In this document: piece by piece, positions 6,146-24,603 of the stretch
Layout of the letters: the number at the start of each line of letters is the position of its first letter
Position numbering within the stretch: the stretch's first letter is position 1
Assembly: GCA_035519675.1 (NCBI GenBank)
Contig: DATIWB010000130.1
Coordinates: 9,629 to 73,628, forward strand
From: Myxococcaceae bacterium
GTDB taxonomy: Bacteria > Myxococcota > Myxococcia > Myxococcales > Myxococcaceae
Direction of reading: 5' to 3'
DNA: 64,000 nt
Notes under the pieces: generated by a model
Databases searched by the model: none
What the model was told of the DNA's origin: nothing
What the model saw: only the letters and a program-made list of their open reading frames with translations
Position numbers and translations under genes: made by a program

Positions 6146-6225
6146 GGCTCAGCCCACGGACCATAGTTGAACCACGCGGAGTCGCCACCGGCTTCAGCGG
6201 GAGCGGGTAGAGTTCCTCCCGCCAG

Positions 6226-8727
<2,502 letters not shown>

Positions 8728-8883
8728 ACGAGCTGCGGCCCGGGGGCGCGGTGCGCTCGCACCATCGCTCCTGGCGAATCCGGGTCCGTTGCACCACGGA
8801 TCTCGTGGGCCGAACGGCATCCTGCGAATCGCCGGAAGGACTGGGACCCTGCCCTCCTCCACGCAGTCCGGGAGGGGTTCCTC

Positions 8884-11800
8884 TTGCATCGAACGCTCCG
8901 ACGTCCCGCGACCTGGGCCTCACGGCGGCTCTTCTGGCTCGTGCTCCTCGTCGCTCCCGCCACCCGCGCCCAGAGCGGCATCTCGGTGCTGACCGGGACG
9001 GTGGTCGACTCCAGCACCCGCGCGCCGGTCTCCGACGTGGTGGTGACTGCCACCTCGCCCACGCTCCAGGGAGAGCAGGTCGTGGTGACCGACGCCAGTG
9101 GTCTCTACCGCGTCCCCCAGCTCCCGCCGGGCATCTACAGCTTGCGCTTCGAGAAGGAGAGCTACCGGCCCTACAGCCGGAGCGGGATCGATGTGGCGGC
9201 GGACCGGACGTTGCGACTCAACGTAGAGCTGCTCCCGGAGACCGCCGGGGTGGAGAACATTGCGGTGGTGGGCACGCCGCCGACCATCGACGTCGGCTCC
9301 AGCACCGTGGGCACCACGGTCAGCCAGGACTTCGTGCGCAATCTGCCGGTCGCCCGGCCCGGCGGGCTGTCCGGCGCCAACCGGTCCTTCGATTCCCTGG
9401 CGACGCTGGCCCCCACCGCGAACGCCGACGCCTACGGGGTCTCGATCAGCGGATCTCAGAGTCCAGAGAACAGCTACTTGATCGACGGATTGGCGGTGAA
9501 CGACACCGCGTACGGGGTCAACGGCTCACCCCTGACCATCGAGTTCATCGACGAAGTGAACGTGATCACCGGGGGCTACATGCCCGAGTACGGGCGGTCG
9601 CTCGGCGGCGCCCTCAGTGCGGTCACCAAGTCGGGAGGCAACGAGTTCCACGGCTCGGTCTTCGGCACCTACACCCCGGGCGCGCTGAGTGGGGCACCGG
9701 CCTCGGTGGAGGGGATCAGTGGCGGAGCAGTGAGCACCCGCACCTCCCTGTTCAACATCGGGGACTTCGGAGCCACGCTCGGCGGCTACATCCTCAAGGA
9801 TCGCCTCTGGTTCTTCGTCGGGTTCCAGTACGCGGCCAGCCGGAACTCGCTGTACCGGGACTTCGCCCAGGCCACCCTGGACGGCGGCGGGAACCAGGCG
9901 CTGGACCCCACGACCGGGCAGCCGATCTACACCCCCATCCCCGGCGGCACGCAGCGCTGGTTCCAGGACGAGCGGTCGATCAACTACATCGCCAAGCTGA
10001 CGTACTTGATCACCACCGACCACCGGGTGAGCGTCTCGATCAACGGCACACCCACCAGCGGCGGCGGTGACAGCGCCCTTCCGTTCCGCATCCCCGGACT
10101 CCTCCAGCTCCGCACTCCTCAGACCGCCTCGACCACCATCGGGGCGGGGACCTTCAACGCCTTCCACATCAAGACCCACAACGACTCGCTGAACGTGGTC
10201 GGTGAGCTGAACAGCGCCTTCCTGGAGAAGCGGCTCCTCCTGGACGCCCGCGTCGGCTGGCACCACCAGCGCGACGAGGGTCTGCCGGGGGATGGAAGCG
10301 AGTTCAACGTCGACGAGCGCACGACGCTGGCCGGTACCCCGCTGTACGCGCTCCATCCCAACATTCCGCGCAACGTCGCCGAGGTGGATCAGGTCCCTTC
10401 GGCGGTCTCGCAGGCCTGCGCCGGAGCCGACGGAGCGCAGAAGTGCGGCGTGCTGGCCTGGTTCACCGGCGGCCCGGGGTTCATCGAACGGCTGCAGCTG
10501 GATTCGTACCAGGCCCGCGGCGTGCTGACCTACATCTTCTCCGGGCTGGGGCACCACGTCTTCAAGGTCGGCGTCGACGGGGTCATCTCCTACTACGAGC
10601 ACAAGAAGGGCTACACCGGGCGAGTCAGCTTCGCCGAGGTTCCCGAGGACACGTTCCCTGGACCGGGCAGCGGGACCCAGCCCTTCGCGGTCTTCGAGAC
10701 CCGGAACTTCGGGCACCTCACCGGGCCAGATCAGCCGGTGCTCGACCCCTTCTCGGACGCCAAGACCAAGTCCACCATCCTCGGCGGCTTCGTCCAGGAC
10801 AGCTGGAGCATCCTGGACAAGGTCACCCTCAACGTGGGGCTGCGCTACGACCAGCTCGCGCTGTCTGGCGCGGACGGGGTGACCCGCATCTCGCTGAAGG
10901 ACCAGATCTCCCCGCGGGTGGGCCTGGTGTGGGACCCGACGCAGCAGGGACGCTCGAAGATCTACGCCAACTACGGGCGCTACTACGAACAGATCCCCCT
11001 GGACATCGCCGACCGCGAGCTGACCACCGCCTCGGGTCTGGTCGTCTACCACGACTACAACTGCGACCCCCTGGGCAGGGGCGTCCAGAACTGCATCGAC
11101 CACAGCCGGCTCTACTCCAACACCCGCCCCAGCCGAACCTGGCTGATCACCGCCGCGGATCAGGTCCCGGTGGATCCCAACCTCAAGTCGCCAACCAACG
11201 AGGAGATCGTGGTCGGCGCCGAGTACGAGGTGCTGGCCAATGCCCGCCTGGGAGTGAACTACATCCACCGGAACCTGGTGCGCACCGTCGAGGACATGTC
11301 CAACGACGAGGCGGCCACGTACTTCATCGGCAATCCGGGTGAGGGGATCGCCTCGTCCTTTCCCAAGGCCAAGCGCACCTACGACGCGGTGACGGTGAGC
11401 TTCACCAAGACCTTCTCCGATCTCTGGCTGGCGCAGGTCAGCTACACCTGGACCCGCCTCCACGGGAACTACGATGGGCTATACCGGCCGGAGAACAACC
11501 AGCTCGACCCGAACCTCAACTCCACCTTCGACCTCAAGTCGCTGCTCCTGAACCAGGAGGGGCCGCTGTTCGGTGACCTGACCCACACGGTGAAGGTCTA
11601 CCTGGCGAAGGAGTTCCCGATTCTCCCGGTGCTCAGCCTCACCCTGGGCGCCTCGTACAACGGCAATTCCGGCCCGCCGATCAGCTACCGCGGCGCGCAG
11701 GTCCTCTACGGGGCGGGCGAGGCTTACATCCTCCAGCGAGGCCAGGGAGGACGGCTCCCCTGGGTGAACACCGTCGACGCCCGCGTGGGAGTGAACTACC

Positions 11801-12231
11801 GGCTGGGGAGGGACAGCGTGGTCACCGTCGCGGTGGAGGGCTTCAACATCTTCAACTCCCAGCGGCCCACCTCGGTGAACGAGAATTACACCTACGACCA
11901 GGTGGGGCCGATCCCCAACGGGACCCAGGGCTCGATCCCCGGCACGGTCTTCGGCTCGACGGTCCTCCGCAACGACGATCCGACCAAGGGACCGGTCTAC
12001 GACCCGTCGAAGACCTTCGAGGAGAACGTGGCCGCCGGCGCGGCCCGGGTGATCTCGCCCGGCAATGGCTCGCTCCCCGCTCCCGGATACGTGAACGGCT
12101 CGGCCAAGCGGGTCCTGCTCCCCGACCCGGCACAGGCCCCGTTCCCCGCGGCGGTGAACCCCACCTGGGGTCGGCCAGCCAGCTACCAGGCCGTGCGGAC
12201 CATCCGCTTCAGCGCCCGGGTGACCTTCTGA
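8884..12231 (+). CDS. Oar-like TonB-dependent outer-membrane transporter, paralog 1 (CarboxypepD_reg-like N-domain + plug + barrel)
   Basis: Signal peptide ending ATRAQS. N-domain VLTGTVVD...GLYRVPQLPPGIYSLRFEK. C-terminal RFSARVTF ends in Phe. TTG start follows GGGAGGGG. Strongly similar to the ORFs at 14296 and 19270. Confidence 0.9.
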   Translation: MHRTLRRPATWASRRLFWLVLLVAPATRAQSGISVLTGTVVDSSTRAPVSDVVVTATSPTLQGEQVVVTDASGLYRVPQLPPGIYSLRFEKESYRPYSRSGIDVAADRTLRLNVELLPETAGVENIAVVGTPPTIDVGSSTVGTTVSQDFVRNLPVARPGGLSGANRSFDSLATLAPTANADAYGVSISGSQSPENSYLIDGLAVNDTAYGVNGSPLTIEFIDEVNVITGGYMPEYGRSLGGALSAVTKSGGNEFHGSVFGTYTPGALSGAPASVEGISGGAVSTRTSLFNIGDFGATLGGYILKDRLWFFVGFQYAASRNSLYRDFAQATLDGGGNQALDPTTGQPIYTPIPGGTQRWFQDERSINYIAKLTYLITTDHRVSVSINGTPTSGGGDSALPFRIPGLLQLRTPQTASTTIGAGTFNAFHIKTHNDSLNVVGELNSAFLEKRLLLDARVGWHHQRDEGLPGDGSEFNVDERTTLAGTPLYALHPNIPRNVAEVDQVPSAVSQACAGADGAQKCGVLAWFTGGPGFIERLQLDSYQARGVLTYIFSGLGHHVFKVGVDGVISYYEHKKGYTGRVSFAEVPEDTFPGPGSGTQPFAVFETRNFGHLTGPDQPVLDPFSDAKTKSTILGGFVQDSWSILDKVTLNVGLRYDQLALSGADGVTRISLKDQISPRVGLVWDPTQQGRSKIYANYGRYYEQIPLDIADRELTTASGLVVYHDYNCDPLGRGVQNCIDHSRLYSNTRPSRTWLITAADQVPVDPNLKSPTNEEIVVGAEYEVLANARLGVNYIHRNLVRTVEDMSNDEAATYFIGNPGEGIASSFPKAKRTYDAVTVSFTKTFSDLWLAQVSYTWTRLHGNYDGLYRPENNQLDPNLNSTFDLKSLLLNQEGPLFGDLTHTVKVYLAKEFPILPVLSLTLGASYNGNSGPPISYRGAQVLYGAGEAYILQRGQGGRLPWVNTVDARVGVNYRLGRDSVVTVAVEGFNIFNSQRPTSVNENYTYDQVGPIPNGTQGSIPGTVFGSTVLRNDDPTKGPVYDPSKTFEENVAAGAARVISPGNGSLPAPGYVNGSAKRVLLPDPAQAPFPAAVNPTWGRPASYQAVRTIRFSARVTF

Positions 12232-12980
12232 TGCGCGCCGACACCTCGACCGAGGAAACGACCATGCTCCGGAGCCTCCTCTGCGCCGCAGTGCTCACCG
12301 CGTCGCTGAACGCCTGCGTCCCGGACGCCGCGCCGCCGCCGTGCCTGATCCAGCGTGGCTACTACACCGTCCAGTTGACGCTGGAGACTCCGCCCTCGGG
12401 GGCCTGCACCGACGTGCTCCCTTCGATCTACGGGGACAGCTGGCGAATGGACATGTACCAGCCCGACAACCAGGTGGTGGTGCATCCGCTGTCCATGCCC
12501 TACCCCGACGTGGGAGGGGATCCGGATCCGTCCCATCCCTACTTCGGGAAGGGGAATCTCTCCGGAGAGCCGGACTCGCGAAGCGTGTGCACCATGCCCA
12601 CGATGTCCGAGGCCCGAGCCGACGTCGACCCGCTCGGCCTCGGTCCCGGTCAGGAGACGTACACGCTCTCCGCCGAGCAGCTCGAGTTCCTCAGCGGCGC
12701 CGACTACCAGGGGACCGAGTTCCAGGGCGAGGTGGCCATCTCCTTCGGTGACTGCTCCGGGACCTACAAGGCCCTAGCGCTGAACCCGCTGGTGCCGTGC
12801 GCCTCGGACGACGATTGCTCGCCGGACGCAGATCCAACCGCCGGCCGGGCCATCGGCTCGGGCATCAACGCCCAGTACGCGGTGGCCTGCACCAAGGCGG
12901 ACTGGGTGACGAACTTTCTCACCGGGGATCCGACGGTGGGGGTGTGCTTCTTCACCAAACCCTTCCCGGGGCTGAAGTGA
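12231..12980 (+). CDS. 8-Cys lipoprotein partner of the Oar-like transporter, paralog 1
   Basis: ATG overlaps the transporter stop (TGATG). Lipobox LTASLNA-C; the true start may be the second Met at 12264. Eight conserved Cys and the C-terminal GVCFFTKPFPGLK are shared with 17550 and 22612. Confidence 0.75.
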   Translation: MRADTSTEETTMLRSLLCAAVLTASLNACVPDAAPPPCLIQRGYYTVQLTLETPPSGACTDVLPSIYGDSWRMDMYQPDNQVVVHPLSMPYPDVGGDPDPSHPYFGKGNLSGEPDSRSVCTMPTMSEARADVDPLGLGPGQETYTLSAEQLEFLSGADYQGTEFQGEVAISFGDCSGTYKALALNPLVPCASDDDCSPDADPTAGRAIGSGINAQYAVACTKADWVTNFLTGDPTVGVCFFTKPFPGLK

Positions 12981-13014
12981 CCGGCCCGGGTCCGGCGAAC
13001 CAGGGGAGCAGGAC

Positions 13015-13353
13015 ATGGGCGCCGACGAGCTGCTGCGGGCGCTGAAGGCGGTGGCCGAGCCCACCCGGCTGCGGATGCTGGAGCTGCTGCTGCAGTGGCA
13101 CGGCCCCCGGACCGGACCGATTCGGTCTGGCGAGCCCGGGCTCTGCCTGTGCGACCTGGAGCTGCTGGTGGGCATGCGGCACGCACTGGTCTCCCACCAC
13201 CTCCGCATCCTCAAGGAGGCGGGGGTGGTCGAGTCCGAGAAGCGAGGCCGGTGGACGGTGTACCGGGCGCGGCCCGAGCCGCTGGCGCAGATCGCCAGCC
13301 GCCTGAGGGGGCTGGCGGCACCACGCGGAGGGCCGGACTCGCGGGCGGCGTGA
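13015..13353 (+). CDS. ArsR/SmtB family transcriptional regulator (variant with inserted loop; CxC retained)
   Basis: LKAVAEPTRLRMLELL ... LCLCDLELLVG ... VSHHLRILKEAGVV ... RGRWTVY. Lies 34 nt downstream of the lipoprotein gene, with GGGGAG upstream as a Shine-Dalgarno sequence. Confidence 0.85.
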   Translation: MGADELLRALKAVAEPTRLRMLELLLQWHGPRTGPIRSGEPGLCLCDLELLVGMRHALVSHHLRILKEAGVVESEKRGRWTVYRARPEPLAQIASRLRGLAAPRGGPDSRAA

Positions 13354-13419
13354 CGTTCCAGTCCCAGGCCGCTCGGCGGGTACAAGCTGTGGTGCCGCCA
13401 CCCGCGGGATACAGGCGCA

Positions 13420-14172
13420 GTGCGACTCCCGGTCGACCTCCACCCTCCGCCCACTCCGAGCTCCCCGCACCTGTCCGGCCCGAGAGGGCTGCGGCTGCTC
13501 TCGGCGCTGGCCCAGGCCGGCGCGAACTGCGAGGGCCGGCAGCGGTTCCGCCTCGAGGCGCTCCGTGCCCTGCGCGCGGCGATTCCCTTCGACTTCGGCT
13601 TCATCGCCACGCCCCCGGCGGGACGTCCCGAGCCGGCATCGCTCGGCGCCACCCCGCCCGTGCTCCGGGTGTTGACCCGGCATGGCCGGGGGGCGTGGAT
13701 CGAGCTGCGCGAGCTCCGGGCCCGGGCCGATGGGGCGGTACTCCAGCTCGCCGGCGCCGGTGCCTCCAGCCCGCTCCTGCGGCTTCTGCAGACCACGCAC
13801 CCGGTCGAGGCGCTGTGCATCGGCTGGCTGAGCGACGAGGCCGCGGCGGTGGTGCTGGCCCGCGAGCTCGAGCCGGCGTTTCACGGCCCGGAGGTGGAGC
13901 TGCTGCGCCTGGCCCTCCCGGTACTCACCCTCGCGGACACCCAGGCCGCGGACCTGGCCGACTCCCTCGGGGCCACCCTCAGCCCCCGGGAGCAGGAGAT
14001 CTTGGGCTACCTCCAGCGGGGCTATAGCAACCGGCAGATCGGCCTGGTGCTCGGAACCTCCCCTCTCACGGTCAGGAACCAGCTTGCGCGGCTCTTCCGC
14101 AAGGTGGGGGTGGCCTCCCGAGCCGAGCTGGTTGGACTCGCCGCCGGCTGCCTCCGGAACCCCGGCCGCTGA
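13420..14172 (+). CDS. LuxR-family transcriptional regulator (uncharacterised N-domain + C-terminal HTH)
   Basis: C-terminal LSPREQEILGYLQRGYSNRQIGLVLGTSPLTVRNQLARLFRKVGVASRAELV. Paralog of 18310..19023. Exact start uncertain (GTG at 13420). Confidence 0.8.
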   Translation: MRLPVDLHPPPTPSSPHLSGPRGLRLLSALAQAGANCEGRQRFRLEALRALRAAIPFDFGFIATPPAGRPEPASLGATPPVLRVLTRHGRGAWIELRELRARADGAVLQLAGAGASSPLLRLLQTTHPVEALCIGWLSDEAAAVVLARELEPAFHGPEVELLRLALPVLTLADTQAADLADSLGATLSPREQEILGYLQRGYSNRQIGLVLGTSPLTVRNQLARLFRKVGVASRAELVGLAAGCLRNPGR

Positions 14173-14295
14173 GTGCTCGCCGTCGCTGATGTGGTGCGGC
14201 GACACCACAGCGGCGGTGGTTCAGCTGCAACCGTGACCCGCTGCCCCTCGCACGTCGACAGTCCCTTCCTCACCCGTCGCGAGGAGGGGCTGCTC

Positions 14296-17200
14296 TTGAA
14301 GCGAGCCGAGCTGGGAACGACAGGAAAGGCACGAGCGTGTGCGCTGCTCTTGACGCTCGTGCCTACCGTGGCGCTGGCGCAGGCCAGCACCTCGGTGCTC
14401 ACCGGAAACGTGATCGACACATCCACCAAGGCCCCCGTGGCAGACGTAGTGGTGACCGCGACCTCTCCCGCCCTGCAGGGCGAGCAGGTGGTGGTGACCG
14501 ACTCCACGGGCCTTTACCGCGTTCCCCAGCTGCCGCCGGGGACGTACACCCTCCGCTTCGAGAAGGAGACCTACCGGCCCTTCTCCCGGACCGGCATCGA
14601 CGTGGCCGCCGACCGGACCCTGCGGCTCAACGTCGAGCTGCTCCCGGAGACCGCGGGGAGCGAGACGGTGACCGTGGTCGGCACCCCGCCCACCATCGAC
14701 ATCGGCTCCAGCGCCACCGGCACCACCATCAACCAGGACTTCGTCCGCAACCTGGCGGTGTCCCGGCCCGGCGGCCTGAGCGGGGCGAACCGCTCGTTCG
14801 ATTCGCTGGCCACCACCGCGCCGCAGGCCAACGGTGACTACTACGGGGTGGGCATCAACGGCGCGACCTCGCCCGAGAACCTGTACCTGATCGACGGCAT
14901 CTCGGTGAACAACCCCGGGTTCGGCACCCTGGGCTCGCCCCTCACCGTGGAGTTCATGGACGAGGTCAACGTGGTCAGCGGCGGGTACATGCCGGAGTAC
15001 GGGCGGACCAGCGGCGGGGCGATCAGCGCGGTCACCAAGTCCGGAGGCAACGAGTTCCACGGCTCGGTGTGGGGCACCTTCACTCCGGGCAGCCTCAGCG
15101 GCGCGCCGGGGGTGGTCCCCGGGGGGACCCCGGTGGTCCAGGGGACGCGGGAGCTGGGCAACTTCGGCGACATCGGGGCGACGATCGGCGGCTACATCCT
15201 CAAGGACAAGCTGTGGTTCTTCGCCGGCCTGCAGTGGTCGGCGCAGCGCTACATCTACGGGCGCAGCTTCAGCCGGCTGATCAACGGCGCGTTCGAGCCC
15301 ATCCCCGACTCGACCCAGCGCCGGAATGGCGACGAGCGGAGCTGGAACTACATCGGCAAGCTCACCTTCCTGATCAGCTCGGATCACCGGGTGAGCCTGA
15401 CGGTCACCGGGACGCCGACCAACGGTGGAAGCGACGGGGGGGTGGCGCTGCGGAACCGCTCCAACAACCGCATCCCCTTCAACGCCAACCTCCTGGCGCT
15501 GGGCACCTACAACGCGGGGTGGACCAAGTCGAGCTTCAACGCCGTGGACGTGGCCGGCGAGCTGAGCAGCTCCTTCCTCGACAAGCGCCTGCTGCTGGAC
15601 GTGAAGCTCGGCGTGCACATCCAGCGCGACTCGTACCTTCCCGGGGACGGCAGCACCCTCGACGACATCGATAACCCGGCAACGCTGGCCGGCGTCCCGG
15701 CGGTGCGTTCGCCGGCGGGCATCCCCACGCCGGTGTACCAGCTGGACACCTCGGTGCCGGCCTCGGTGGTCCGGGCCTGCACCGAGCCCGGCGCGACCTG
15801 CAACGTCGTCCGGTACGGGACCGGCGGCCCGGGCGGGCTGATCGAGTACCTGAACTTCGACAGCTACCAGGGCCGGGCGGTGCTGACCTACCTGGTCAAC
15901 GCGCTGGGGCACCACGTGCTCAAGGCAGGCTTCGACGGGCAGATCAACAAGTACAGCCACGACGAGACGTACACCGGTGGCGTCGTCTACCGCGACGGGA
16001 CCGACATCGGCGGGCCCGCGGGCTCGGTCTACGACTACCGCCGCTTCGGTGCCATCACCGACACCGACACCATCAGCGACGCGCCCCGGCCGTACACCGC
16101 CACCAAGTCGACCATCCTCGGAGGCTTCGTCCAGGACAGCTGGAGCATCATGGACAAGGTCACCCTCAACCTCGGTCTCCGCTACGACGCACTGAACATG
16201 GAGGGGCAGGACGGCAAGACGCGGATCAAGCTCACCGATCAGCTGAGCCCCCGCATCGGCGTGGTGTGGGATCCGACCCAGCAGGGCCGGTCGAAGATCT
16301 TCGCCAACTACGGGCGCTACTACGAGTACGTCCCGCTCGACATCTCCGACCGGGCGCTGAGCAGCTCGCAGGGGACGCTCCAGGGGGTGCACGACTGCAA
16401 TCCCCTCGCGGTGGGGCGGAAGGGGTGCGACGTCAGGACACGGGTGGACAGCACCGCGACCATCACCGGGATCGCCCAGGCCCCCGACCGCAAGTGGGGG
16501 GTCACCGGGCCACCCTACGCCTCGTACGTGGACCCGAACCTCAAGTCGCCGACCAATGACGAGATCGTCGCTGGCGCCGAGTACGAGGTGCTGCCCAACG
16601 CGCGGGCTGGCGTCACCTACACCCACCGGAACCTGGTCCGCACGGTGGAGGACATGTCCAACAACGACGGGCAGACCTACTTCATCGGCAACCCCGGGGA
16701 GGGGATCGCCGACTCCTTCCCCACCGCCAAGCGAACCTACGACGCGGTCACCGTGCTCTTCACCAAGAGCTTCTCCGACCTCTGGCTGGCACAGGTCAGC
16801 TACACCTGGTCCAAGCTGACCGGGAACTACGACGGCCTGTTCAACGCCCAGGGCCTGGCAGCGCTCGGCGCGCCGCAGCTCGATCCCAACATCAACTCCA
16901 CCTTCGACCTGCGGACTCTCCTGCTGAACCAGGACGGTCCGCTGAGCGGGGACATCACCCACAACATCAAGGTCTACTTGGCCAAGGAGTTCGTCATCAA
17001 CCCGGTGTTCAGCGCCACGCTGGGTGGCTCCTTCAACGCCAACTCCGGGGCACCGATCAACGCGCTGGGCGGCCACCCCATCTACGGCGCCGGCCAGGCC
17101 TTCCTCCTCCAGCGGGGCAGCGGTGGGCGACTGCCCTGGGTCACCTCGCTCGACGCCCGGGTGAACCTCAACTACCGGCTGAGCAAGGACAGCGTGATCA

Positions 17201-17547
17201 CCGCCTCGGTGGAAGCGTTCAACGTCTTCAACTCGCAGCGGCCGGTCTCGGTGGACGAGAACTACACCCTGAACACCGTCTCTCCCATCCTCGGCGCCAC
17301 CCAGGGCACGGTGCCTGCGCAGTTCGGAGGGATCTGCAGCGGAACCACCATCGACACCTGCGCACCGGGCAACGGCTCACTGCCCAAGCCGCGGGTGGCG
17401 AACTCGACCACCGGCGCGGCGATCAACGTCTCGCTCCCGGATCGCAACGGTAACCCGATCCCCCGGGTGACCAACCTCACCTGGGGCACACCCACCAACT
17501 ACCAGCCGGTGCGTCAGTTCCGGTTCAGCCTGCGGTTCACGTTCTAG
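14296..17547 (+). CDS. Oar-like TonB-dependent outer-membrane transporter, paralog 2
   Basis: ORF 14173..17547 trimmed to the in-frame TTG at 14296, which follows GAGGAGGGG. The signal peptide ends ALAQAS. Same domain order as paralog 1. C-terminal RFSLRFTF. Confidence 0.9.
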   Translation: MKRAELGTTGKARACALLLTLVPTVALAQASTSVLTGNVIDTSTKAPVADVVVTATSPALQGEQVVVTDSTGLYRVPQLPPGTYTLRFEKETYRPFSRTGIDVAADRTLRLNVELLPETAGSETVTVVGTPPTIDIGSSATGTTINQDFVRNLAVSRPGGLSGANRSFDSLATTAPQANGDYYGVGINGATSPENLYLIDGISVNNPGFGTLGSPLTVEFMDEVNVVSGGYMPEYGRTSGGAISAVTKSGGNEFHGSVWGTFTPGSLSGAPGVVPGGTPVVQGTRELGNFGDIGATIGGYILKDKLWFFAGLQWSAQRYIYGRSFSRLINGAFEPIPDSTQRRNGDERSWNYIGKLTFLISSDHRVSLTVTGTPTNGGSDGGVALRNRSNNRIPFNANLLALGTYNAGWTKSSFNAVDVAGELSSSFLDKRLLLDVKLGVHIQRDSYLPGDGSTLDDIDNPATLAGVPAVRSPAGIPTPVYQLDTSVPASVVRACTEPGATCNVVRYGTGGPGGLIEYLNFDSYQGRAVLTYLVNALGHHVLKAGFDGQINKYSHDETYTGGVVYRDGTDIGGPAGSVYDYRRFGAITDTDTISDAPRPYTATKSTILGGFVQDSWSIMDKVTLNLGLRYDALNMEGQDGKTRIKLTDQLSPRIGVVWDPTQQGRSKIFANYGRYYEYVPLDISDRALSSSQGTLQGVHDCNPLAVGRKGCDVRTRVDSTATITGIAQAPDRKWGVTGPPYASYVDPNLKSPTNDEIVAGAEYEVLPNARAGVTYTHRNLVRTVEDMSNNDGQTYFIGNPGEGIADSFPTAKRTYDAVTVLFTKSFSDLWLAQVSYTWSKLTGNYDGLFNAQGLAALGAPQLDPNINSTFDLRTLLLNQDGPLSGDITHNIKVYLAKEFVINPVFSATLGGSFNANSGAPINALGGHPIYGAGQAFLLQRGSGGRLPWVTSLDARVNLNYRLSKDSVITASVEAFNVFNSQRPVSVDENYTLNTVSPILGATQGTVPAQFGGICSGTTIDTCAPGNGSLPKPRVANSTTGAAINVSLPDRNGNPIPRVTNLTWGTPTNYQPVRQFRFSLRFTF

Positions 17548-17549
17548 CC

Positions 17550-18227
17550 ATGGACACCACCATGAGAACCTCACTGCTCTGCATGCTGCTCCTCGCCACC
17601 GCCTGTGGCTCGCTGGCCCAGCCCGAGTGCCAGATGCTCCCATCTGCGCAGGGCGGGTACGTGCTGCGCTTCACCCGGACCGGATCGGCCAGCGCCGGCT
17701 GCGACACCCGGAACCCCGCGGAGACCAGCGACATCTGGGTCTTCGACACCATCGCCAACAGCCAGGTACGGGTGCACGCCGCACTCACCATGCCCTATGC
17801 CGATCCCACGGTGGACCCGCTTCCGGCGGGGCTGATCGGCGCGGGCGAGTTCACCACCCGGGAGGCCGACGCCGATTCGCTGTGCCACATCGCCAGTCTG
17901 ACCACCATGACCGACGGCACCCTCTCCTACGCCACGCGGAACATGGAGTCGTTGGGGAGCGCGGCGTACCAGAACGCTGAGTTCAAAGCCGAGGTCACCA
18001 TGACCTCCGGAGCGTGCACGGCCGAGTACACGGTGCAGGCGCTCTCGCCGGCGGTTGGCTGCGAGACCGACGCGGACTGCGACCCGTTCAAGCAGCCGTT
18101 CAGCTCGGGCATCTTCAGCACCTTCGACCAGGGCTGCAAGACGGACCCCTGGACGGTGCCGGTGGCCACCGCCTTCGGCAGCTCGGGGGTGTGCTTCTTC
18201 AACCAGCCGTACCCGAGCCTGAAGTAG
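17550..18227 (+). CDS. 8-Cys lipoprotein partner, paralog 2
   Basis: Starts 2 nt after the transporter stop. Lipobox LLLATA-C. Same 8-Cys spacing; C-terminal GVCFFNQPYPSLK. Confidence 0.75.
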   Translation: MDTTMRTSLLCMLLLATACGSLAQPECQMLPSAQGGYVLRFTRTGSASAGCDTRNPAETSDIWVFDTIANSQVRVHAALTMPYADPTVDPLPAGLIGAGEFTTREADADSLCHIASLTTMTDGTLSYATRNMESLGSAAYQNAEFKAEVTMTSGACTAEYTVQALSPAVGCETDADCDPFKQPFSSGIFSTFDQGCKTDPWTVPVATAFGSSGVCFFNQPYPSLK

Positions 18228-18247
18228 CCTGCGGCGAGAGTCTCCCC

Positions 18248-18299
18248 GGGCCCCGTGCCGGAGCCGTCTGGCTCCTTCGCACGGGGCCCTTCTCGTTTT
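18248..18299. terminator. bidirectional intrinsic terminator between the convergent lipoprotein-2 and LuxR-2 genes
   Basis: Nested perfect hairpin GGGCCCCGTGC-C-GGAGCC-GTCT-GGCTCC-TTC-GCACGGGGCCC, followed by the T-rich TTCTCGTTTTC. Confidence 0.75.
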
Positions 18300-18309
18300 C
18301 AGCCGACTG

Positions 18310-19023
18310 CTAGGCGATACGCGCGCGCCGGGTGGCCATGGCCGCCAGCCCCACCAGCTCGGAGCGGCCGCTCACGCCCACCTTGCGGAAGAGACGGCAG
18401 AGCTGGTTGCGCACCGTGAAGTGCGAGGTGCCCAGCGCCGAGGCGATCTCCCGGTTGTTGTAGCCGCGGCTGACGTAGTCGAAGATCTCCTGCTCCCGGG
18501 GGGTGAGCCGGGCCCCGAGCGCCTCTTGCACCTCGCTCGCCCGCCGGTCCCCGAGCCCGATGACCGGAAGGGACAGCCGGACCAGCTCCAGCTCGCGGCG
18601 GGCGAAGGGCTCGCTGGCGCGACCGAGCACCAGGGCGGTCCGACCCTCCTCGAGCGCGGCGAGGCAGAGGTGACGGACTGGACGCTCGGCGCGCAGCAGG
18701 CGTCCGAGCTCCGAGTCCGCGCTCACCAGGCCCGAGGCCTCGACCACTCCGCCCAGCCCCAGCGCGGCGGCACGAATCCCGGCCAGCTCGCTCCAGACGG
18801 TGTCCGCTCTCCGGGCGAGGAGGCGCTCGGCGAGTGGCGGCAGTCCCCAGCTGACCGGCTCGGGTCCGGGGCTGGAGGCGCCGCTCTGGACGAAGGCCAC
18901 CTCGAAGGGAATCGCGCCCTGGAGCAGCGCGAGCGTTCCGGAGCGGAACTCGGCGCGGTCGTGGGCGCGGACGGCAAGTGCGGCGATCTCCGACAGCAGT
19001 TGCGGAGCAGCGTTGATTGACAT
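18310..19023 (-). CDS. LuxR-family transcriptional regulator, paralog 2
   Basis: ORF 18310..19476 trimmed to the Met of MSINAAPQLLSEI (complement of 19021-19023) by alignment with the 13420 protein. C-terminal LTPREQEIFDYVSRGYNNREIASALGTSHFTVRNQLCRLFRKVGVSGRSELV. Confidence 0.8.
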   Translation of the reverse strand: MSINAAPQLLSEIAALAVRAHDRAEFRSGTLALLQGAIPFEVAFVQSGASSPGPEPVSWGLPPLAERLLARRADTVWSELAGIRAAALGLGGVVEASGLVSADSELGRLLRAERPVRHLCLAALEEGRTALVLGRASEPFARRELELVRLSLPVIGLGDRRASEVQEALGARLTPREQEIFDYVSRGYNNREIASALGTSHFTVRNQLCRLFRKVGVSGRSELVGLAAMATRRARIA

Positions 19024-19269
19024 GCGGTCGTCGTTCTCTTGGTACGACCCCCTCGCTGACTGTGACAATGGGCGTTGACCCGAAGTTGCCGTCCTTCGCC
19101 GCACGCCCGCGCCGCCTCGCTGCAGCATCCGGCGAACCGCCGTGGGCCACCCGCGAACCGCCTGGTACGGACGGACCACATCCCCAGTTGGTTCAGGCGC
19201 AATCCAGACCCGGCCACCCCGCGCACCGCATCCTCTGCTGCACCACGCAGTCCGAGGAGGGGTGCCAAC

Positions 19270-22200
19270 TTGGAACGAATCACGCTCCGTCGCCGCGTCG
19301 CGAGCAACGGCCGGGCCCAGCGGCTCCGCGCCCTGCTCGTCACCGGCGCACTCTTCGCCGGTCCTTCGGCGCTCGCCCAGGGAAGCACCTCGGTGCTCAC
19401 CGGAAACGTCGTCGATGCGTCCACCCGCGCCCCGGTGGCGGACGTGGTGGTCACCGCCACCTCTCCCTCGCTGCAAGGCGAGCAGGTGGTGGTCACCGAC
19501 GCCTCCGGCCTCTACCGCGTCCCCCAGCTGCCGCCCGGGACGTACACCCTGCGCTTCGAGAAGGAGACCTACCGGCCCTACAGCCGCACCGGCATCGAGG
19601 TCGCCGCGGACCGGACGCTCCGGCTGAACGTCGAGCTGTTGCCCGAGGTGGCCGGGGTGGAGACGGTGACCGTGGTCGGCGCGCCGCCGGTGGTGGACGT
19701 GGGCTCGAGCACCGTGGGCACCACGGTGAACAGCGACTTCGTGCGCAACCTCGCGGTGTCGCGGCCCAACGGGCTCGGCGGCGCCAACCGCTCCTTCGAC
19801 TCGCTGGCCTCCACCGCCCCCAACGCGGCGAACGACGTGTACGGCGTGTCGATCAGCGGCTCGCAGAGCCCGGAGAATAGCTACCTCATCGACGGCCTGT
19901 CGGTGAACGACCCTGCATACGGGGTCAACGGCTCACCGCTGACGGTGGAGTTCATCGACGAGGTCAACATCATCACCGGCGGCTACATGCCCGAGTACGG
20001 GCGGACACTCGGCGGTGCCCTGAGCGCCACCACCAAGTCCGGCGGCAACGAGTTCCATGGCTCGGTGTTCGGCACCTGGACCCCTGGAGGGCTCACCGGC
20101 GCTCAGGGCCCACTCACCATCGCCGGAGGCACCCCGGCCATCCTCAGCGCCCGAAACCTCGACAACATCTGGGACCTCGGGGCAACACTGGGCGGCTACA
20201 TCATCAAGGACAAGCTGTGGTTCTTCGCCGGCGTTCAGTACGCCACCCAGCGCTACTCCTACACGCGGACGTACCAGAAGGCCCGGGTGGACAGCGCCGG
20301 CGAATTCATCAACGACCCGGCGACCGGCCAGCCGATCTACGACCCCATCCCCGGGGGCGAGAGCCGCCGCTTCGGTTCGGAGAAGACCATCAACTACATC
20401 GGGAAGCTGACCTACCTCATCACCTCGGATCACCGGCTGAGCGTCTCGGTCACCGGAACTCCCACCTCGGGAGGAGGGGACGGCAACTACCCGATCAGGG
20501 TCCCGGGCCTGCTCCAGGCGAGGAATCCCTCCAACCCGGGCCTCTACGGCGGGTCCGGTTTCAACGTCTTCAACCTCAAGACCAAGGACGACTCGCTCAA
20601 CGTCTCCGCCGAGCTCAACAGCAGCTTCCTCGACAAGCGGCTGCTCCTCGACGTGCGCTTCGGCTGGCACCACCAGCTCGACGAGGGGCTTCCGGCCGAC
20701 GGCAGCGAGTTCAACACCGGCCAGGATGGCAAGCTCGCCGGGACTCCCGGCTACATCACCAGCACCGCGGATCTCCAGAACATCGCCGCACTCGAGCCGG
20801 ACGTTCCCGCCGCGGTGAGGCAGGCCTGCTCGGGGCCCTTCGCCAACACCGAGTGCGGCTTCCTCGGCTACGTCGTCGGGGGGCCGGGGTTCATCGAGCG
20901 GTTGAAGCTGGACAGCTACCAGGGCCGGGGGGTCCTCACCCTCCTGGTCAACGGGCTCGGGCACCATGTCATCAAGGGCGGGGTCGACGGGGCGATCTCC
21001 TACTACGAGCACACCAAGGCCTATACCGGGAAGGCGGCCTGGCAGTACCTCCAGGGGAACAGCACCCCGGACGGCCTGCCGGCGATCAACGAGGCCCGCC
21101 GCTATGGCTACCTCACCGGCCCCGATCAGGCGGTCACGCTCGACAGCATCACCGCCAAGAGCAAGTCGACGATCTTCGGGTTCTTCGTCCAGGACAGCTG
21201 GAGCATCCTGGACAAGGTCACGCTGAACGTCGGCATCCGGTACGACACCCTGGCGCTGTCCGGCGAGGACGGCATCACCCGCATCGCTCTGAAGGATCAG
21301 TTCTCACCGCGGATCGGCGTGGTGTGGGACCCGACGCAGCAGGGCCGCTCGAAGATCTACGCCAACTACGGGCGCTACTACGAGAACATCCCCCTGGACA
21401 TCGCCGACCGCGAGCTGAGCATCGAGCCGCAGATCTACGGCTACTCCAACACCGACTGTGACCCGGTGGGCATCGGCGGGCTGGCCCGGTGTGATGCCGC
21501 CAAGCGCCTCACCTCGGGCCTCCGGCCAAACAGGAAATGGCGGCAAGGCTCGGCGGACCAGGTCCCGGTGGATCCCGATCTCAAGTCCGCGTCCACCGAC
21601 GAGGTGGTCGCCGGGGCCGAGTACGAGGTCCTGGCCAATGCGCGGGTGGGACTGAACTACACCTATCGCAACCTGGTCCGGACGGTGGAGGACATGTCCA
21701 ACGACGAGGCCAACACCTACTTCATCGGCAACCCCGGCGAGGGGATCGCCGACACCTTTCCCAAGGCCAAGCGCACCTACCACGCGGTGACGCTCAGCTT
21801 CACCAAGACCTTCTCCGACCTGTGGATGGCGCAGGCCAGCTACACCTGGTCGCGGCTGACCGGAAACTACGACGGCCTCTACCGGCCGGAGGACAACCAG
21901 CTCGACCCCAACCTGAACTCCACCTTCGACCTCAAGTCGCTGCTCCTCAACCAGGACGGGAACCTGGCGGCGGACGCCACCCACAACATCAAGGTGTACC
22001 TGGCGAAGGAGTTCGTGATCGTCCCCACCTTCAGCATCACCGCCGGCGGCTCGTTCACCGCCACCTCGGGCACCCCGATCAACTACCTCGGCGCCCAGGT
22101 CACCTACGGGCCGGGACAGGCCTACATCCTCGAGCGCGGCGCCGGTGGACGGTTGCCGTGGGTCACCAGCTTCGACGCCCGGGTGTCCTTCAACTTCCGC

Positions 22201-22608
22201 TTCTCGAAGGACAGCACGCTCAGCGCCAGCGTCGAAGGGTTCAACATCTTCAACTCGCAGCGGCCGATCACCGTGGACAACAACTACACCTTCGACAACG
22301 TTGGCCCGGTCATCGGGGCACGGAACGGGAGCGTCCCTGCCCCCAACGGGGAGATCGTCCGGATCCTCCCCGGCTACGACCCCGCCCTCACCTTCGACCA
22401 GAACCGCGCGGCCGGGAACGTGGAGAGCATCCAGGCGGCGAACGGCTCGCTGCCGAAGCCCCGGTACGTCCAGGGCGCGGCGGCCCAGGTCGTCCTCCCG
22501 GACCCCTTCCAGAACACCGGGTTCGTGAACACCAACGTCAACTGGGGCAAGCCAACCAACTACCAGCCGGTTCGCAGCTTCCGGTTCAGCCTCCGGTTCA
22601 CCTTCTAG
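19270..22608 (+). CDS. Oar-like TonB-dependent outer-membrane transporter, paralog 3
   Basis: ORF 19075..22608 trimmed to the in-frame TTG at 19270, which follows GAGGAGGGG. The signal peptide ends ALAQGS. By eye, over 80% identical to paralog 1 across the first ~240 mature residues. C-terminal RFSLRFTF. Confidence 0.9.
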   Translation: MERITLRRRVASNGRAQRLRALLVTGALFAGPSALAQGSTSVLTGNVVDASTRAPVADVVVTATSPSLQGEQVVVTDASGLYRVPQLPPGTYTLRFEKETYRPYSRTGIEVAADRTLRLNVELLPEVAGVETVTVVGAPPVVDVGSSTVGTTVNSDFVRNLAVSRPNGLGGANRSFDSLASTAPNAANDVYGVSISGSQSPENSYLIDGLSVNDPAYGVNGSPLTVEFIDEVNIITGGYMPEYGRTLGGALSATTKSGGNEFHGSVFGTWTPGGLTGAQGPLTIAGGTPAILSARNLDNIWDLGATLGGYIIKDKLWFFAGVQYATQRYSYTRTYQKARVDSAGEFINDPATGQPIYDPIPGGESRRFGSEKTINYIGKLTYLITSDHRLSVSVTGTPTSGGGDGNYPIRVPGLLQARNPSNPGLYGGSGFNVFNLKTKDDSLNVSAELNSSFLDKRLLLDVRFGWHHQLDEGLPADGSEFNTGQDGKLAGTPGYITSTADLQNIAALEPDVPAAVRQACSGPFANTECGFLGYVVGGPGFIERLKLDSYQGRGVLTLLVNGLGHHVIKGGVDGAISYYEHTKAYTGKAAWQYLQGNSTPDGLPAINEARRYGYLTGPDQAVTLDSITAKSKSTIFGFFVQDSWSILDKVTLNVGIRYDTLALSGEDGITRIALKDQFSPRIGVVWDPTQQGRSKIYANYGRYYENIPLDIADRELSIEPQIYGYSNTDCDPVGIGGLARCDAAKRLTSGLRPNRKWRQGSADQVPVDPDLKSASTDEVVAGAEYEVLANARVGLNYTYRNLVRTVEDMSNDEANTYFIGNPGEGIADTFPKAKRTYHAVTLSFTKTFSDLWMAQASYTWSRLTGNYDGLYRPEDNQLDPNLNSTFDLKSLLLNQDGNLAADATHNIKVYLAKEFVIVPTFSITAGGSFTATSGTPINYLGAQVTYGPGQAYILERGAGGRLPWVTSFDARVSFNFRFSKDSTLSASVEGFNIFNSQRPITVDNNYTFDNVGPVIGARNGSVPAPNGEIVRILPGYDPALTFDQNRAAGNVESIQAANGSLPKPRYVQGAAAQVVLPDPFQNTGFVNTNVNWGKPTNYQPVRSFRFSLRFTF

Positions 22609-22611
22609 AGG

Positions 22612-23352
22612 ATGCCCATGCACACCCGAGCTTCAGGCCTGCACGCCGTCCTCCTCTCCGTCCTCTCCGTGGTGCTGCTCACTGCCTGCCCCACCGCGGC
22701 CCCCGCCCCGTGCCTCATCCAGCGGCCGCCTCTGCAGGGCTACACCATCAAGTTCACCCTCCAGGGCACGCCCCCGGCCGGGTGCGAGACGGTCCTGCCG
22801 TCCACCTACGCCGACAACTGGCGGTTCGACGGATTCAGCGACCGGGCGATCTACGTGAAGTCGGACAGCATGCCGTACCCGGACGAGGGCGGACCGAACA
22901 GCCCGGTGCTGGGGCACGGAACGTTCTCCGAGGCGCCCGATGCGGACAACATCTGCACCATTCCCGACATCACCCCGATGACCTCGGACACCGACGTGCT
23001 GGGGCTGGGGTTGAACAACCTGGTCTACCACCCGAAGAATCTCCGCTTCCTCGACGGGGCTCGCTACCAGGGCTCGACCTTCGAGGGCGACGCGGACATC
23101 ACCTTCGGCACCTGCACCGGCTCGTACAAGATGCAGGGGCTCACCCCATCGCCGATCGGGTTCATCGGACCGTGCGAGGACGACTCGCTGTGCGACCCCT
23201 TCGGCGACCCGGCGAATGGAGTCTTCGCCTCGGGGCTCAACCCGGACTACGCCATCGCCTGCGTGAAGGAAGACTGGGTGACCACCTACCTGACCGGAGA
23301 CCCCACGCTGGGAATCTGTTTCTTCACCAAGCCGTTCCCTGGGTTGAAGTGA
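22612..23352 (+). CDS. 8-Cys lipoprotein partner, paralog 3
   Basis: Starts 3 nt after the transporter stop. Lipobox VVLLTA-C. Eight conserved Cys; C-terminal GICFFTKPFPGLK. Confidence 0.75.
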   Translation: MPMHTRASGLHAVLLSVLSVVLLTACPTAAPAPCLIQRPPLQGYTIKFTLQGTPPAGCETVLPSTYADNWRFDGFSDRAIYVKSDSMPYPDEGGPNSPVLGHGTFSEAPDADNICTIPDITPMTSDTDVLGLGLNNLVYHPKNLRFLDGARYQGSTFEGDADITFGTCTGSYKMQGLTPSPIGFIGPCEDDSLCDPFGDPANGVFASGLNPDYAIACVKEDWVTTYLTGDPTLGICFFTKPFPGLK

Positions 23353-23366
23353 CTTCGGGACCTGCG

Positions 23367-23390
23367 ACCCGGGGAAATCGATTCCCGGGT
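23367..23390 (+). terminator. GC-rich hairpin downstream of lipoprotein-3 (possible attenuator or weak terminator)
   Basis: ACCCGGGGAA-ATCG-ATTCCCGGGT forms a stem of about 9 bp. There is no T-tract, so function is uncertain. Confidence 0.3.
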
Positions 23391-23421
23391 CCGGCGTCCT
23401 ACTGTTGGCCGGAGCAGTGAC

Positions 23422-23769
23422 ATGAGCGCGAATGAACTGTTGAGCGCGTTGAAGGCGGTGGCCGAGCCCACCCGGTTGCGCATGCTCGAGCTGCTGCTCG
23501 GGTGGGAGGGGCCGCGCACCGGTCCGGTGCGCACGGGCGAGCGAGGGCTGTGCCTGTCGGACCTCGAGCTGCTGGTGGGTCTCCCCCACGCGCTGGTGTC
23601 GCATCATCTGCGCATCCTGAAGGAGGCGAACCTGGTGGAGACCGAGCGCCGGGGCCGGTGGACCGTCTACCGTCCGTGCCCGGAGCGGGTGAGTCTCCTG
23701 GCCGAGGCGCTGCGGACGGTGGGAACCACCCGCCAGCTCCCGGGCGACCCCAGCCTCTCGGCGGCGTGA
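23422..23769 (+). CDS. ArsR/SmtB family transcriptional regulator (paralog of 13015; CxS variant)
   Basis: LKAVAEPTRLRMLELLLGWEGPRTGPVRTGERGLCLSDLELLVG...VSHHLRILKEANLVETERRGRWTVY. Confidence 0.85.
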   Translation: MSANELLSALKAVAEPTRLRMLELLLGWEGPRTGPVRTGERGLCLSDLELLVGLPHALVSHHLRILKEANLVETERRGRWTVYRPCPERVSLLAEALRTVGTTRQLPGDPSLSAA

Positions 23770-23772: not shown

Positions 23773-24603
23773 TCAGCCGCGGCGGGACTTGTTCCGGAAC
23801 GCCGCCGGAGTCTCGCCCAGAATCCGGCGAAACACGCGGGTGAGATGGCTCTGGTCGGTGAACCCGGTCTCGAGCGCGATGTCGGCGATGGGCCGCTCGG
23901 TCTCCAAGAGGAGCCGGCGCGCGGCATCGACCCGCAGCTGACGCAGGTACTCCGCAGGGGTGGTCCTCAGATGACGCCGGAATCCCCTGACCAGCCGGTG
24001 CAGCTGGACGCCGGCGACGCGCGAGAGCGCCTCCAGCGTCCAGGTCTCGCTCAGGCCCCCGTGGAGGCATTCGCGGGCCCGCTCCAGCCACGGCGGAGGG
24101 GAGGTGCCGCGCTCGGCGTCCGCGGCGCGGCCGACGGTCGCGAAGAGCTCCAGGGCCAGGCCCTCGGAGAGGAAGGGCGAGTGCGCATCCGGAGCCCGCA
24201 GCTCGGCGGCGATGCGGGCGGCGAGCCCCGCCAGGCCGCGCTGGTGAATGGTGGCCGGCTCGGAGAGCAGCGACCCGTACACCTCGGAGATCCGCGACGG
24301 CCCGGGCTGCACCTCCACCACCAGCGCCTCCGTCTCCACCGGGACGAAGGCGTTCCAGTGCCTGGCTCCGGCGGGGGTGACCAGCACGGTGTCGCCCTGC
24401 CCCAGGTTGGAGGCCCGCCGGTCGAGCTCGCCCTCCCAGCCCCCGCGGAGCACGAAGGCGATGCTCGGGGTGGCATGCGCGTGCGGCTCGAGCCGGAGCC
24501 CCGGGGCGAACCAGGCCCGGGTCAACACCATCCCCCCGGCCTCGAGGGCGACTGCCCGGGCGAAGTGCGAGAGCGCGCGGGGGGTGGGTACGGAGGTTCT
24601 CAC
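23773..24603 (-). CDS. AraC family transcriptional regulator with N-terminal cupin-like domain
   Basis: C-terminal dual HTH: LEALSRVAGVQLHRLVRGFRR...IADIALETGFTDQSHLTRVFRRILGETPAAF. Confidence 0.85.
   Translation of the reverse strand: MRTSVPTPRALSHFARAVALEAGGMVLTRAWFAPGLRLEPHAHATPSIAFVLRGGWEGELDRRASNLGQGDTVLVTPAGARHWNAFVPVETEALVVEVQPGPSRISEVYGSLLSEPATIHQRGLAGLAARIAAELRAPDAHSPFLSEGLALELFATVGRAADAERGTSPPPWLERARECLHGGLSETWTLEALSRVAGVQLHRLVRGFRRHLRTTPAEYLRQLRVDAARRLLLETERPIADIALETGFTDQSHLTRVFRRILGETPAAFRNKSRRG

Follow-up and report, generated by a model that had tools for sequence, protein, structure and literature searches.

Three tandem modules of Oar-class transporters and MlpA-family lipoproteins at a Myxococcaceae locus

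Transporters and lipoproteins of the module array

We analysed a stretch of 64,000 nucleotides (nt) from an uncultured Myxococcaceae bacterium (contig DATIWB010000130.1, hereafter the window), which carries three paralogous modules on the + strand at 8884-23769, each with a gene for an Oar-class TonB-dependent transporter (TBDT) followed by a gene for a lipoprotein. The initial annotation had described three transporter and lipoprotein modules in tandem at these positions, and all of the features that it listed are present, with small corrections. The transporter genes occupy 8884-12231 (TBDT1, 1115 amino acids, TTG start), 14296-17547 (TBDT2, 1083 amino acids) and 19270-22608 (TBDT3, 1112 amino acids, TTG start), and the lipoprotein genes lie at 12231-12980 (LP1, 249 amino acids when counted from 12231), 17550-18227 (LP2, 225 amino acids) and 22612-23352 (LP3, 246 amino acids), all on the + strand. 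Transporter and lipoprotein genes are tightly spaced, with the lipoproteins starting at -1, +2 and +3 nt from the stop codons of TBDT1, TBDT2 and TBDT3, respectively.

Each transporter has a signal peptide and ends in ...TF, i.e., with a C-terminal Phe, and their lengths range from 1083 to 1115 amino acids. A Pfam scan identified a CarboxypepD_reg (PF13620) N-terminal extension in all three (E 3.7e-18 to 2.7e-17, 63-66 bits against a cut-off of 32.3), and their barrels matched OMP_b-brl_4 (PF25183, E ~1e-30 to 1e-32) as well as TonB_dep_Rec_b-barrel (PF00593, E ~1e-13). The match to the Plug domain (PF07715) was weak, reaching 24.1 bits in TBDT1, above the cut-off of 23.9, and 20.4 bits in TBDT2 and TBDT3, below it. 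Between the N-terminal domain and the plug, a TonB-box-like motif, E-x-[IV]-x-V-V-G, recognised by eye, is conserved in all three proteins as ENIAVVG (9253-9273) in TBDT1 and as ETVTVVG in TBDT2 (14662-14682) and TBDT3 (19660-19680). By this architecture TBDT1-3 belong to the Oar class. A sequence search of the PDB with TBDT3 returned no related solved structure. Pairwise identity between the transporters is 61-66%, with TBDT1 and TBDT3 sharing 66% and either of them sharing 61-62% with TBDT2. The N-terminal domain and plug are ~80% identical among the three, whereas variable segments of the barrel fall to about 40-60%. Across the first 240 mature residues of TBDT1 and TBDT3 we measured 83.3% identity, in agreement with the figure of over 80% that had been estimated by eye for the first ~240 residues.

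The lipoproteins have a lipobox (LNAC in LP1, ATAC in LP2 and LTAC in LP3), whose Cys is followed by eight Cys conserved in the family, and their C-termini read ...PFPGLK or ...PYPSLK, in accordance with a P-x-L-K/R motif of the family. They are less similar to each other than the transporters are, with pairwise identities of 35-49% (49% for LP1 and LP3, 35-36% for either against LP2). LP1 may start at Met12 (12264), 33 nt further on, which is more likely than a start at 12231 and gives a normal lipoprotein signal peptide of 18 amino acids. All three lack a Lys at position +2, the mark of inner-membrane lipoproteins in Myxococcus xanthus, which supports targeting to the outer membrane. The eight invariant Cys are best read as forming four disulfides in an exported protein.

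Scans of LP1-3 with local copies of the Pfam and NCBIfam models, in which PF27412 was not among the local Pfam entries, gave no match. A homologue search recovered 78 relatives, nearly all of which have a precomputed match to PF27412, a family named 'MlpA'. The match is carried by relatives that are 85-95% identical to LP3 or LP2 (P0001 and P0002, 91% to LP3; P0277 and P0270, 92-95% to LP2) and by the LP1-like protein P0060. A profile-profile comparison of the window clade with 95 distant members, from which that clade was excluded, gave a probability of 100% and E = 2.6e-49 over 218 columns. Membership is thus assigned indirectly, via the precomputed matches of close relatives and the profile comparison, and by profile, cysteine pattern and genomic context LP1-3 are members of the MlpA family (PF27412). 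A further homologue search with the 95 distant members found at least 14 proteins, and M. xanthus MlpA was not among the matches listed.

The family comprises 493 proteins at E <= 1e-3 and 214 at E <= 1e-10, as counted in a HMMER scan of 1.84 billion representatives at 50% identity. Its members are mostly 225-340 amino acids long, with a lipobox and nine Cys (one lipid-modified plus eight), and a C-terminal ...P-[SAG]-L-[KR] is common. Alignments of 95-116 diverse members show little or no variation in the Cys columns. All named source organisms are Myxococcota (Myxococcaceae, Archangium), with the sole exception of a contig labelled Gemmatimonadales. This 321-kb contig (L010, CAVRWY010000010.1) carries a transporter-MlpA-ArsR...LuxR module that is 66% identical to LP3, and the reading frame of its lipoprotein is split; this occurrence could reflect mis-binning, an assembly error or a transfer. 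We also observed that some public predicted proteins at this gene pair (P0165, P0080 and P0076) are frameshift artefacts; P0165, for instance, begins with a transporter C-terminus (...YQPVRSFRF) and continues into lipoprotein-like sequence.

A PDB sequence search with the lipoprotein profile identified no related solved structure. Confident AlphaFold2 models were obtained for LP3 from 22 sequences, with a predicted local distance difference test (pLDDT) score of 84 and a predicted template-modelling (pTM) score of 0.80, and for LP2 from 58 sequences, with a pLDDT of 92 and a pTM of 0.86. In both models eight main beta strands precede a C-terminal stretch of ~60 residues that contains short helices, short strands and several of the conserved Cys. 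A Foldseek search of the PDB with the two models returned nothing at E <= 1e-3, the best matches having E = 4e-3 and 1e-2 with template-modelling (TM) scores of at most 0.31. The weak, non-significant matches were all small eight-stranded barrels, namely lipocalins, NHBA, fHbp, TbpB lobes, a Riemerella haemophore and BF2706; for LP2 they included the small lipoprotein BT2262 and a chain of the BT2261-2264 SusCD complex, likewise non-significant (E 0.05-0.07, TM ~0.25). These matches hint at a small eight-stranded barrel as the fold class of MlpA, with no fold family assigned.

Conservation of the pair and its link to Ton genes

To follow the pair outside the window, we used a scan of 185,579 species genomes, which yielded ten loci, all in metagenome-assembled genomes (MAGs) and nine of them labelled Myxococcaceae, Myxococcota or 'delta proteobacterium'. 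Upstream DNA is available for nine of the ten, and in 9/9 the gene immediately ahead of the lipoprotein is that of the transporter. Judged by their flanking genes, at least L001-L008 are the window's own chromosomal locus in related species, and they count as one observation. Contig look-ups were made for eight diverse members, 20-63% identical to LP2, and in all eight a transporter with CarboxypepD_reg and OMP_b-brl_4 domains ends 2-70 nt upstream of the lipoprotein, in genomic neighbourhoods that are otherwise unrelated. A metagenome scan with a six-sequence alignment from a distant clade returned 80 loci with 57-72% G+C, 55 of which have enough flanking DNA to be tested. An Oar-type transporter adjoins MlpA in every one of the 55; it lies just upstream on the same strand in 53, and in the other two (L034, at 5-586 and 668-1420, and L038) the order is inverted, with MlpA first and the Oar-type transporter starting ~100 nt downstream. 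No MlpA gene was found apart from an Oar-type transporter among the testable loci, which answers a question posed with the initial annotation, namely whether the lipoproteins usually lie away from Oar-like genes: they do not. The transporter-lipoprotein pair is a real, conserved two-gene unit and not a local coincidence. As a separate observation, the gene upstream of MlpA in L034 ends in ...FHFSIGLF, which by eye resembles the C-terminus of a barrel protein of the Omp85 family.

TonB, ExbB and one or two ExbD genes stand beside the pair in at least 23 of the 80 metagenome loci. In 14 loci (among them L021, L022, L024-L027, L031, L035-L037, L045, L048 and L054) they come immediately after MlpA and in its orientation, and in nine (L044, L047, L061, L063, L078, L082, L095, L099 and L100) they lie upstream of the transporter in divergent orientation. 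No Ton genes are present within the window; its modules 1-3 are therefore satellite copies and have to rely on a Ton system from another part of the genome.

Across 46 pairs the lipoprotein diverges faster than its transporter, with a mean pairwise identity of 33% against 46%. In an Archangium-type clade (L011, L012-L014 and L017; ~3600-13900) the pair is flanked by two to three Peptidase_S51 genes, an OPT oligopeptide transporter and a Peptidase_M20 gene, a neighbourhood that looks like a peptide-utilisation locus. Neighbours encoding ArsR, LuxR, Peptidase_S51, OPT, M20, Tannase or Trans_reg_C proteins were not found in the 80 distant metagenome loci; they are clade-specific and uninformative on general function. 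A radical-SAM protein of ~515 amino acids (PF19864 and PF04055), ~70% identical between loci, also recurs beside the pair, sometimes followed by an EamA transporter. It is encoded at 3830-5350 (-) in L018/L019, 2095-3573 in L051, 5930-7477 in L061, 5441-7069 in L095 and 5528-7072 in L099/L100, and partially, at contig ends, at 5899-6048 in L063 and 1771-2070 in L089.

The founding member of the family is on record in M. xanthus. Martinez-Canamero and colleagues reportedly placed mlpA just downstream of oar in 2002 and described a developmental phenotype for an mlpA mutant. MXAN1450 is annotated as 'TonB-dependent receptor (Oar)' and the next locus tag, MXAN1451, as 'Putative lipoprotein MlpA', and mass spectrometry of purified outer membrane found both products (Bhat et al. 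2011, PMC3222651). The suggestion in the initial annotation that the pairing may be undescribed is therefore not upheld, the lipoprotein family being Pfam PF27412, MlpA, with adjacent tags and two outer-membrane products in M. xanthus. In the literature that we searched, no paper considers Oar and MlpA to be a functional pair, MlpA and MXAN_1451 go unmentioned in the Oar secretion paper, and nothing appears under 'PF27412'.

The window resembles the M. xanthus system in several respects. The Oar subclass is defined by a PF13620 extension, TonB box, plug, 22-strand-type barrel and a length of more than 1000 amino acids (PMC6434023), an architecture that TBDT1-3 follow with a TonB-box-like motif and a weak match to the plug, and the lipoproteins of the window fall in the Pfam family named after MlpA. 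The genes tonB1-exbB1-exbD1-exbD2 adjoin oar (PMC6434023; PMC8546572), and such a tonB-exbB-exbD-exbD set also accompanies many of the MlpA loci found here. In contrast, the pair occurs in the window three times, in tandem and in diverged form, with ArsR and LuxR genes and no Ton genes, which makes its modules satellite paralogues and not the oar-mlpA orthologue. PopC-type secretion, moreover, is known for Oar itself only. What is new here is the tandem arrangement with its own regulators, and the generality of the Oar-MlpA(-Ton) linkage may be new as well.

Duplication, loss and regulation of the modules

The array is preceded by the glycogen phosphorylase gene glgP (6226-8727) and closed on its far side by an AraC-family gene on the opposite (-) strand (23773-24603). 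Within it, module 1 is closer to module 3 than to module 2 in transporter, lipoprotein and 5' leader. The upstream region of module 1 (8728-8883, +) holds a leader and ribosome-binding-site block, CACGCAGTCCGGGAGGGGTT, at 8860-8879 that is common to module 3. In the form CACGCAGTCCG(A)GGAGGGGT just ahead of a start codon, this block occurs only at 8860-8879 and 19244-19263, against 0.03 occurrences expected by chance. The same relationship between modules 1 and 3 in every component and in the leader indicates that whole modules were duplicated, which bears out the segmental duplication proposed in the initial annotation, with TBDT, lipoprotein, ArsR and leader in agreement. The spacers ahead of the two ArsR genes (12981-13014 and 23353-23421) both contain CCCGGGTCCGGCG, and the duplication thus took in the lipoprotein-ArsR junction.

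Orthologues of each module are 83-92% identical in related genomes, so the duplications predate those species. The orthologous locus, between glgP and araC/TPR/asnC (TPR, tetratricopeptide repeat) in related Myxococcaceae MAGs, holds one, two or three modules: module 3 only in L002, module 3 with a C-terminal remnant of LP2 in L001, modules 1 and 3 in L003, modules 2 and 3 in L004 and L005, and all three in the window and in L009, which starts at ArsR1 and whose module 1 is inferred. These differing sets among relatives indicate that modules are being lost by deletion, and the locus is a hot spot of module loss. In L001 the C-terminal ~96 residues of an LP2 orthologue (5283-5618; 88% identical) directly follow glgP; this remnant is the scar of a deletion in which module 1, LuxR1, TBDT2 and half of LP2 were lost. 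TBDT3 of L001 is itself apparently frameshifted near 9530.

Modules 1 and 3 end with genes for ArsR/SmtB-family regulators, ArsR1 (13015-13353, +, 112 amino acids) and ArsR3 (23422-23769, +, 115 amino acids), whose 71% identity agrees with their earlier description as paralogues; module 2 has no ArsR gene. Both proteins have a winged-helix HTH_5 domain (PF01022; E 2.9e-10 for ArsR1 and 2.6e-9 for ArsR3) and match NF033788 with 73 and 65 bits, respectively, against a cut-off of 55. At the alpha-3 position, where a classical ArsR has ELCVCD, ArsR1 reads CLC and ArsR3 CLS, and neither protein has an alpha-5 His/Asp/Glu site. Judged by these residues, metal sensing would be possible for ArsR1 and doubtful for ArsR3. 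Just ahead of CLC/CLS both carry the stretch W-x-G-P-R-T-G-P-[IV]-R-[ST]-G-E-x-G, which may be an insertion foreign to typical ArsR/SmtB proteins.

Two LuxR/GerE-family regulators, 47% identical to each other, are encoded at 13420-14172 (LuxR1, +, 250 amino acids, with a C-terminal helix-turn-helix and an N-terminal ~170 amino acids without a Pfam match) and at 18310-19023 (LuxR2, -, 237 amino acids), the latter divergent from module 3. LuxR2 accompanies module 3 in every genome compared, and LuxR1 occurs with module 1 and ArsR1 (L003) and is absent where module 1 is absent (L004 and L005); both genes are kept in relatives without module 2. Module 2 had been described as bracketed by two paralogous LuxR genes and, although it is physically flanked by them, the wiring that this implies is misleading, as the LuxR genes travel with modules 1 and 3. 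In L010 an ArsR gene and then a LuxR gene lie downstream of a single distant module, and in L016 an ArsR-like gene follows the pair. The ancestral unit looks like transporter, lipoprotein, ArsR and LuxR, and module 2 would be without a regulator of its own, ArsR and LuxR apparently belonging to modules 1 and 3.

An intrinsic terminator of module 2 lies at 18248-18298 (+) and consists of a long GC-rich hairpin followed by UUCUCGUUUU. The hairpin (18248-18290) has a folding energy of -42 kcal/mol (z = -6.2), which is consistent with the strong terminator annotated at 18248, but a U-run is present on the + strand only, so that it terminates module 2 and is not bidirectional. The divergent control region between LuxR2 and TBDT3 (19024-19269) holds many blocks, some of them long, that are conserved across eight genomes. 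Among these are GACTGTGACAA..GTTGAC, an inverted repeat formed by TTCGCCGCACGC (19095-19106) and GCATCCGGCGAA (19125-19136), CTGGTAC-GACGGACCACA near 19160-19180, GTTGGTTCAGGCGCAATCC near 19186-19204 and the leader block (19244-19263). We regard the conserved blocks as candidate promoter or operator elements. A scan for sigma-70 promoters found nothing in the region. An operator common to the upstream regions of modules 1 and 3, CYGSCGAAYCG, was considered and dropped, with one match against 1.3 expected.

A putative two-protein transport unit and its alternatives

We interpret the array as three diverged Oar-MlpA modules, each of which would be a transport unit of two proteins, energised by TonB, in which MlpA is the accessory subunit, and we assign this interpretation a probability of roughly 60%. 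Each module would be an operon of an Oar-class transporter and its own MlpA-family outer-membrane lipoprotein, and lipoprotein and barrel would form a single TonB-energised transport unit in the outer membrane. MlpA itself would be a lipid-anchored, disulfide-stapled, small beta-barrel-like accessory subunit, most likely acting at the outer face, where it would capture substrate or gate the barrel in the manner of SusD on SusC. We favour such a role at the outer face because of the analogy with SusD and TbpB and because MlpA is the fast-evolving partner. Divergence between the modules is greatest in the lipoprotein (35-49% identity) and in variable barrel segments, which suggests that the three may handle different substrates. 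Import of peptide-like or other organic nutrients appears the most likely direction, given the peptidase and OPT-transporter neighbours in another MlpA clade, and modules 1 and 3 may each be controlled by their own pair of ArsR and LuxR.

Several points weigh against this interpretation. Locus tags and the name of the Pfam family are what links LP1-3 to M. xanthus MlpA. The correlation between transporter and lipoprotein divergence, r = 0.77, falls to 0.15 for distant pairs. The peptide-import neighbours belong to the other clade, and none were found in the window or in the 80 metagenome loci. In addition, Oar and PopC sufficed for PopC secretion in Escherichia coli, with MlpA unmentioned (Braun review, PMC11658791), which implies that MlpA is unneeded for at least that activity. 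A mirror-tree comparison was set aside as evidence of co-evolution, r being 0.15 without close relatives; the pairs document co-inheritance and not co-evolution.

It is tempting to go further and to regard Oar-MlpA as the myxobacterial counterpart of SusC-SusD, i.e., as an obligate TonB-dependent two-protein machine in which the lipoprotein on the barrel decides passage or is itself handled by the barrel. We offer this as a tentative extension, which on balance we would not yet favour. If it were true, the three modules would be three substrate-specific versions of the machine, and MlpA could be the missing factor behind the working of an Oar-type barrel in both export and import.

The likeness to SusC/SusD and RagA/RagB of Bacteroidota, including the BT2261-2264 complex with its additional small lipoproteins, lies in the order of a TBDT gene with a CarboxypepD_reg-like extension followed by an outer-membrane lipoprotein gene, and in a pair that genomes carry in several diversified copies, set within loci specific for a substrate. 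However, TBDT1-3 matched no SusC/RagA NCBIfam model and LP1-3 matched no SusD Pfam model. MlpA has ~220 amino acids and eight Cys and is beta-rich in the models, whereas SusD has ~500-600 amino acids and is alpha-helical, with TPR-like repeats. The Oar architecture is dominant in Bacteroidetes (PMC6434023).

TbpA/TbpB and the Slam-dependent HpuA, fHbp and NHBA of Neisseria and its relatives offer another comparison, in which a TBDT works with a lipid-anchored partner built of small eight-stranded beta-barrels. The best fold matches of both MlpA models include NHBA, fHbp, TbpB lobes and lipocalins, all non-significant (E ~0.06-0.1 and TMq ~0.27 for LP3 against TbpB). In contrast to TbpB, MlpA is a single unit of 200 amino acids and not bilobed, and it has neither sequence similarity to TbpB nor a TbpB Pfam match; no Slam (DUF560) gene came to light, either in the window or in the loci. 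In Neisseria tbpB precedes tbpA. The pairs of the window may work like SusC/SusD or TbpA/TbpB, by analogy, and are not members of either system.

The place of MlpA in the outer membrane could also be the opposite one. MlpA may face the periplasm and serve as a structural or assembly factor for the large Oar-type barrel, with no part in substrate recognition, possibly by attaching to its plug or CarboxypepD_reg domain or by acting as a tether. Default Lol sorting would indeed leave it in the inner leaflet of the outer membrane, the position of its gene between transporter and TonB-ExbBD in many operons fits the Ton-facing side, and M. xanthus MlpA was recovered in the outer-membrane fraction (PMC3222651). 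We nevertheless consider this unlikely, as the lipoprotein diverges faster than the barrel both across pairs (33% against 46%) and within the window (35-49% against 61-66%), and a partner of the N-terminal domain and plug, which are the most conserved parts of the transporter, would be predicted to be conserved as well. Alternatively, MlpA could be cargo, with the Oar-type barrel exporting its cognate MlpA, or another protein with the help of MlpA, to the cell surface, which would extend the reported role of Oar in secretion of the protease PopC. The strict one-to-one pairing of barrel and lipoprotein would fit a dedicated exporter and its substrate as well, and the very C-terminal end of the family, C-[FV]-[FL]-x-x-P-F-P-x-L-K, is strongly conserved and could serve as a signal for export or recognition. 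Yet a lipoprotein reaches the outer membrane via the Lol pathway without a TBDT, and we know of no TBDT that flips a lipoprotein. Import is suggested by the peptidase and OPT genes beside the pair in one clade, the sequence itself indicates no direction, and a cargo role strikes us as distinctly unlikely.

The ArsR/SmtB-family genes at the ends of modules 1 and 3, the CLC of ArsR1 at the classical ELCVCD position and the ArsR-like gene that follows the pair in L016 and L010 would fit a third function, the uptake of a metal or metalloid that is sensed by ArsR/SmtB and bound by the Cys-rich lipoprotein. However, ArsR3 reads CLS and neither ArsR has the alpha-5 site, the eight Cys are better explained by disulfides, and ArsR homologues are absent from the 80 distant loci. 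ArsR-type sensors, moreover, usually respond to an excess of metal by de-repressing efflux or detoxification, a logic that would be wrong for an importer, and we regard metal uptake as very unlikely. Finally, adjacency might reflect conserved gene order with no functional or physical link, and the developmental defect of the mlpA mutant of Martinez-Canamero et al. (2002) is said to be milder than that of oar. This explanation is hardly credible in view of adjacency in every testable locus, among members down to ~25% identity, in many neighbourhoods and even in inverted order, with gaps of 2-70 nt and the lipoprotein often inside a transporter-Ton operon.

The proposed Oar-MlpA unit bears on a large class of transporters. 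To our knowledge, the substrates of Oar-type transporters are largely unknown outside Bacteroidota, and protein export has been reported for a single TBDT, Oar. Roughly one in four TonB-dependent transporters is of the Oar type (PMC6434023). Throughout the myxobacterial lineages that we sampled, such transporters have an MlpA-family lipoprotein as invariable genomic partner, and the Oar-MlpA link offers a concrete and cheap hypothesis for M. xanthus genetics. The window is a natural experiment in this respect, with three diverged modules and separate regulators, and with close relatives that keep one, two or three of the modules.

The window as a whole has a G+C content of ~70% and includes ordinary chromosomal genes, such as those for the DNA polymerase III alpha subunit, a sigma-70 factor, glucose-6-phosphate dehydrogenase and transketolase. 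An open reading frame at 58006-60000 (-), 664 amino acids long and without a Pfam match, has a first-position G+C of 0.90, and may encode a low-complexity or repetitive protein or be no gene.

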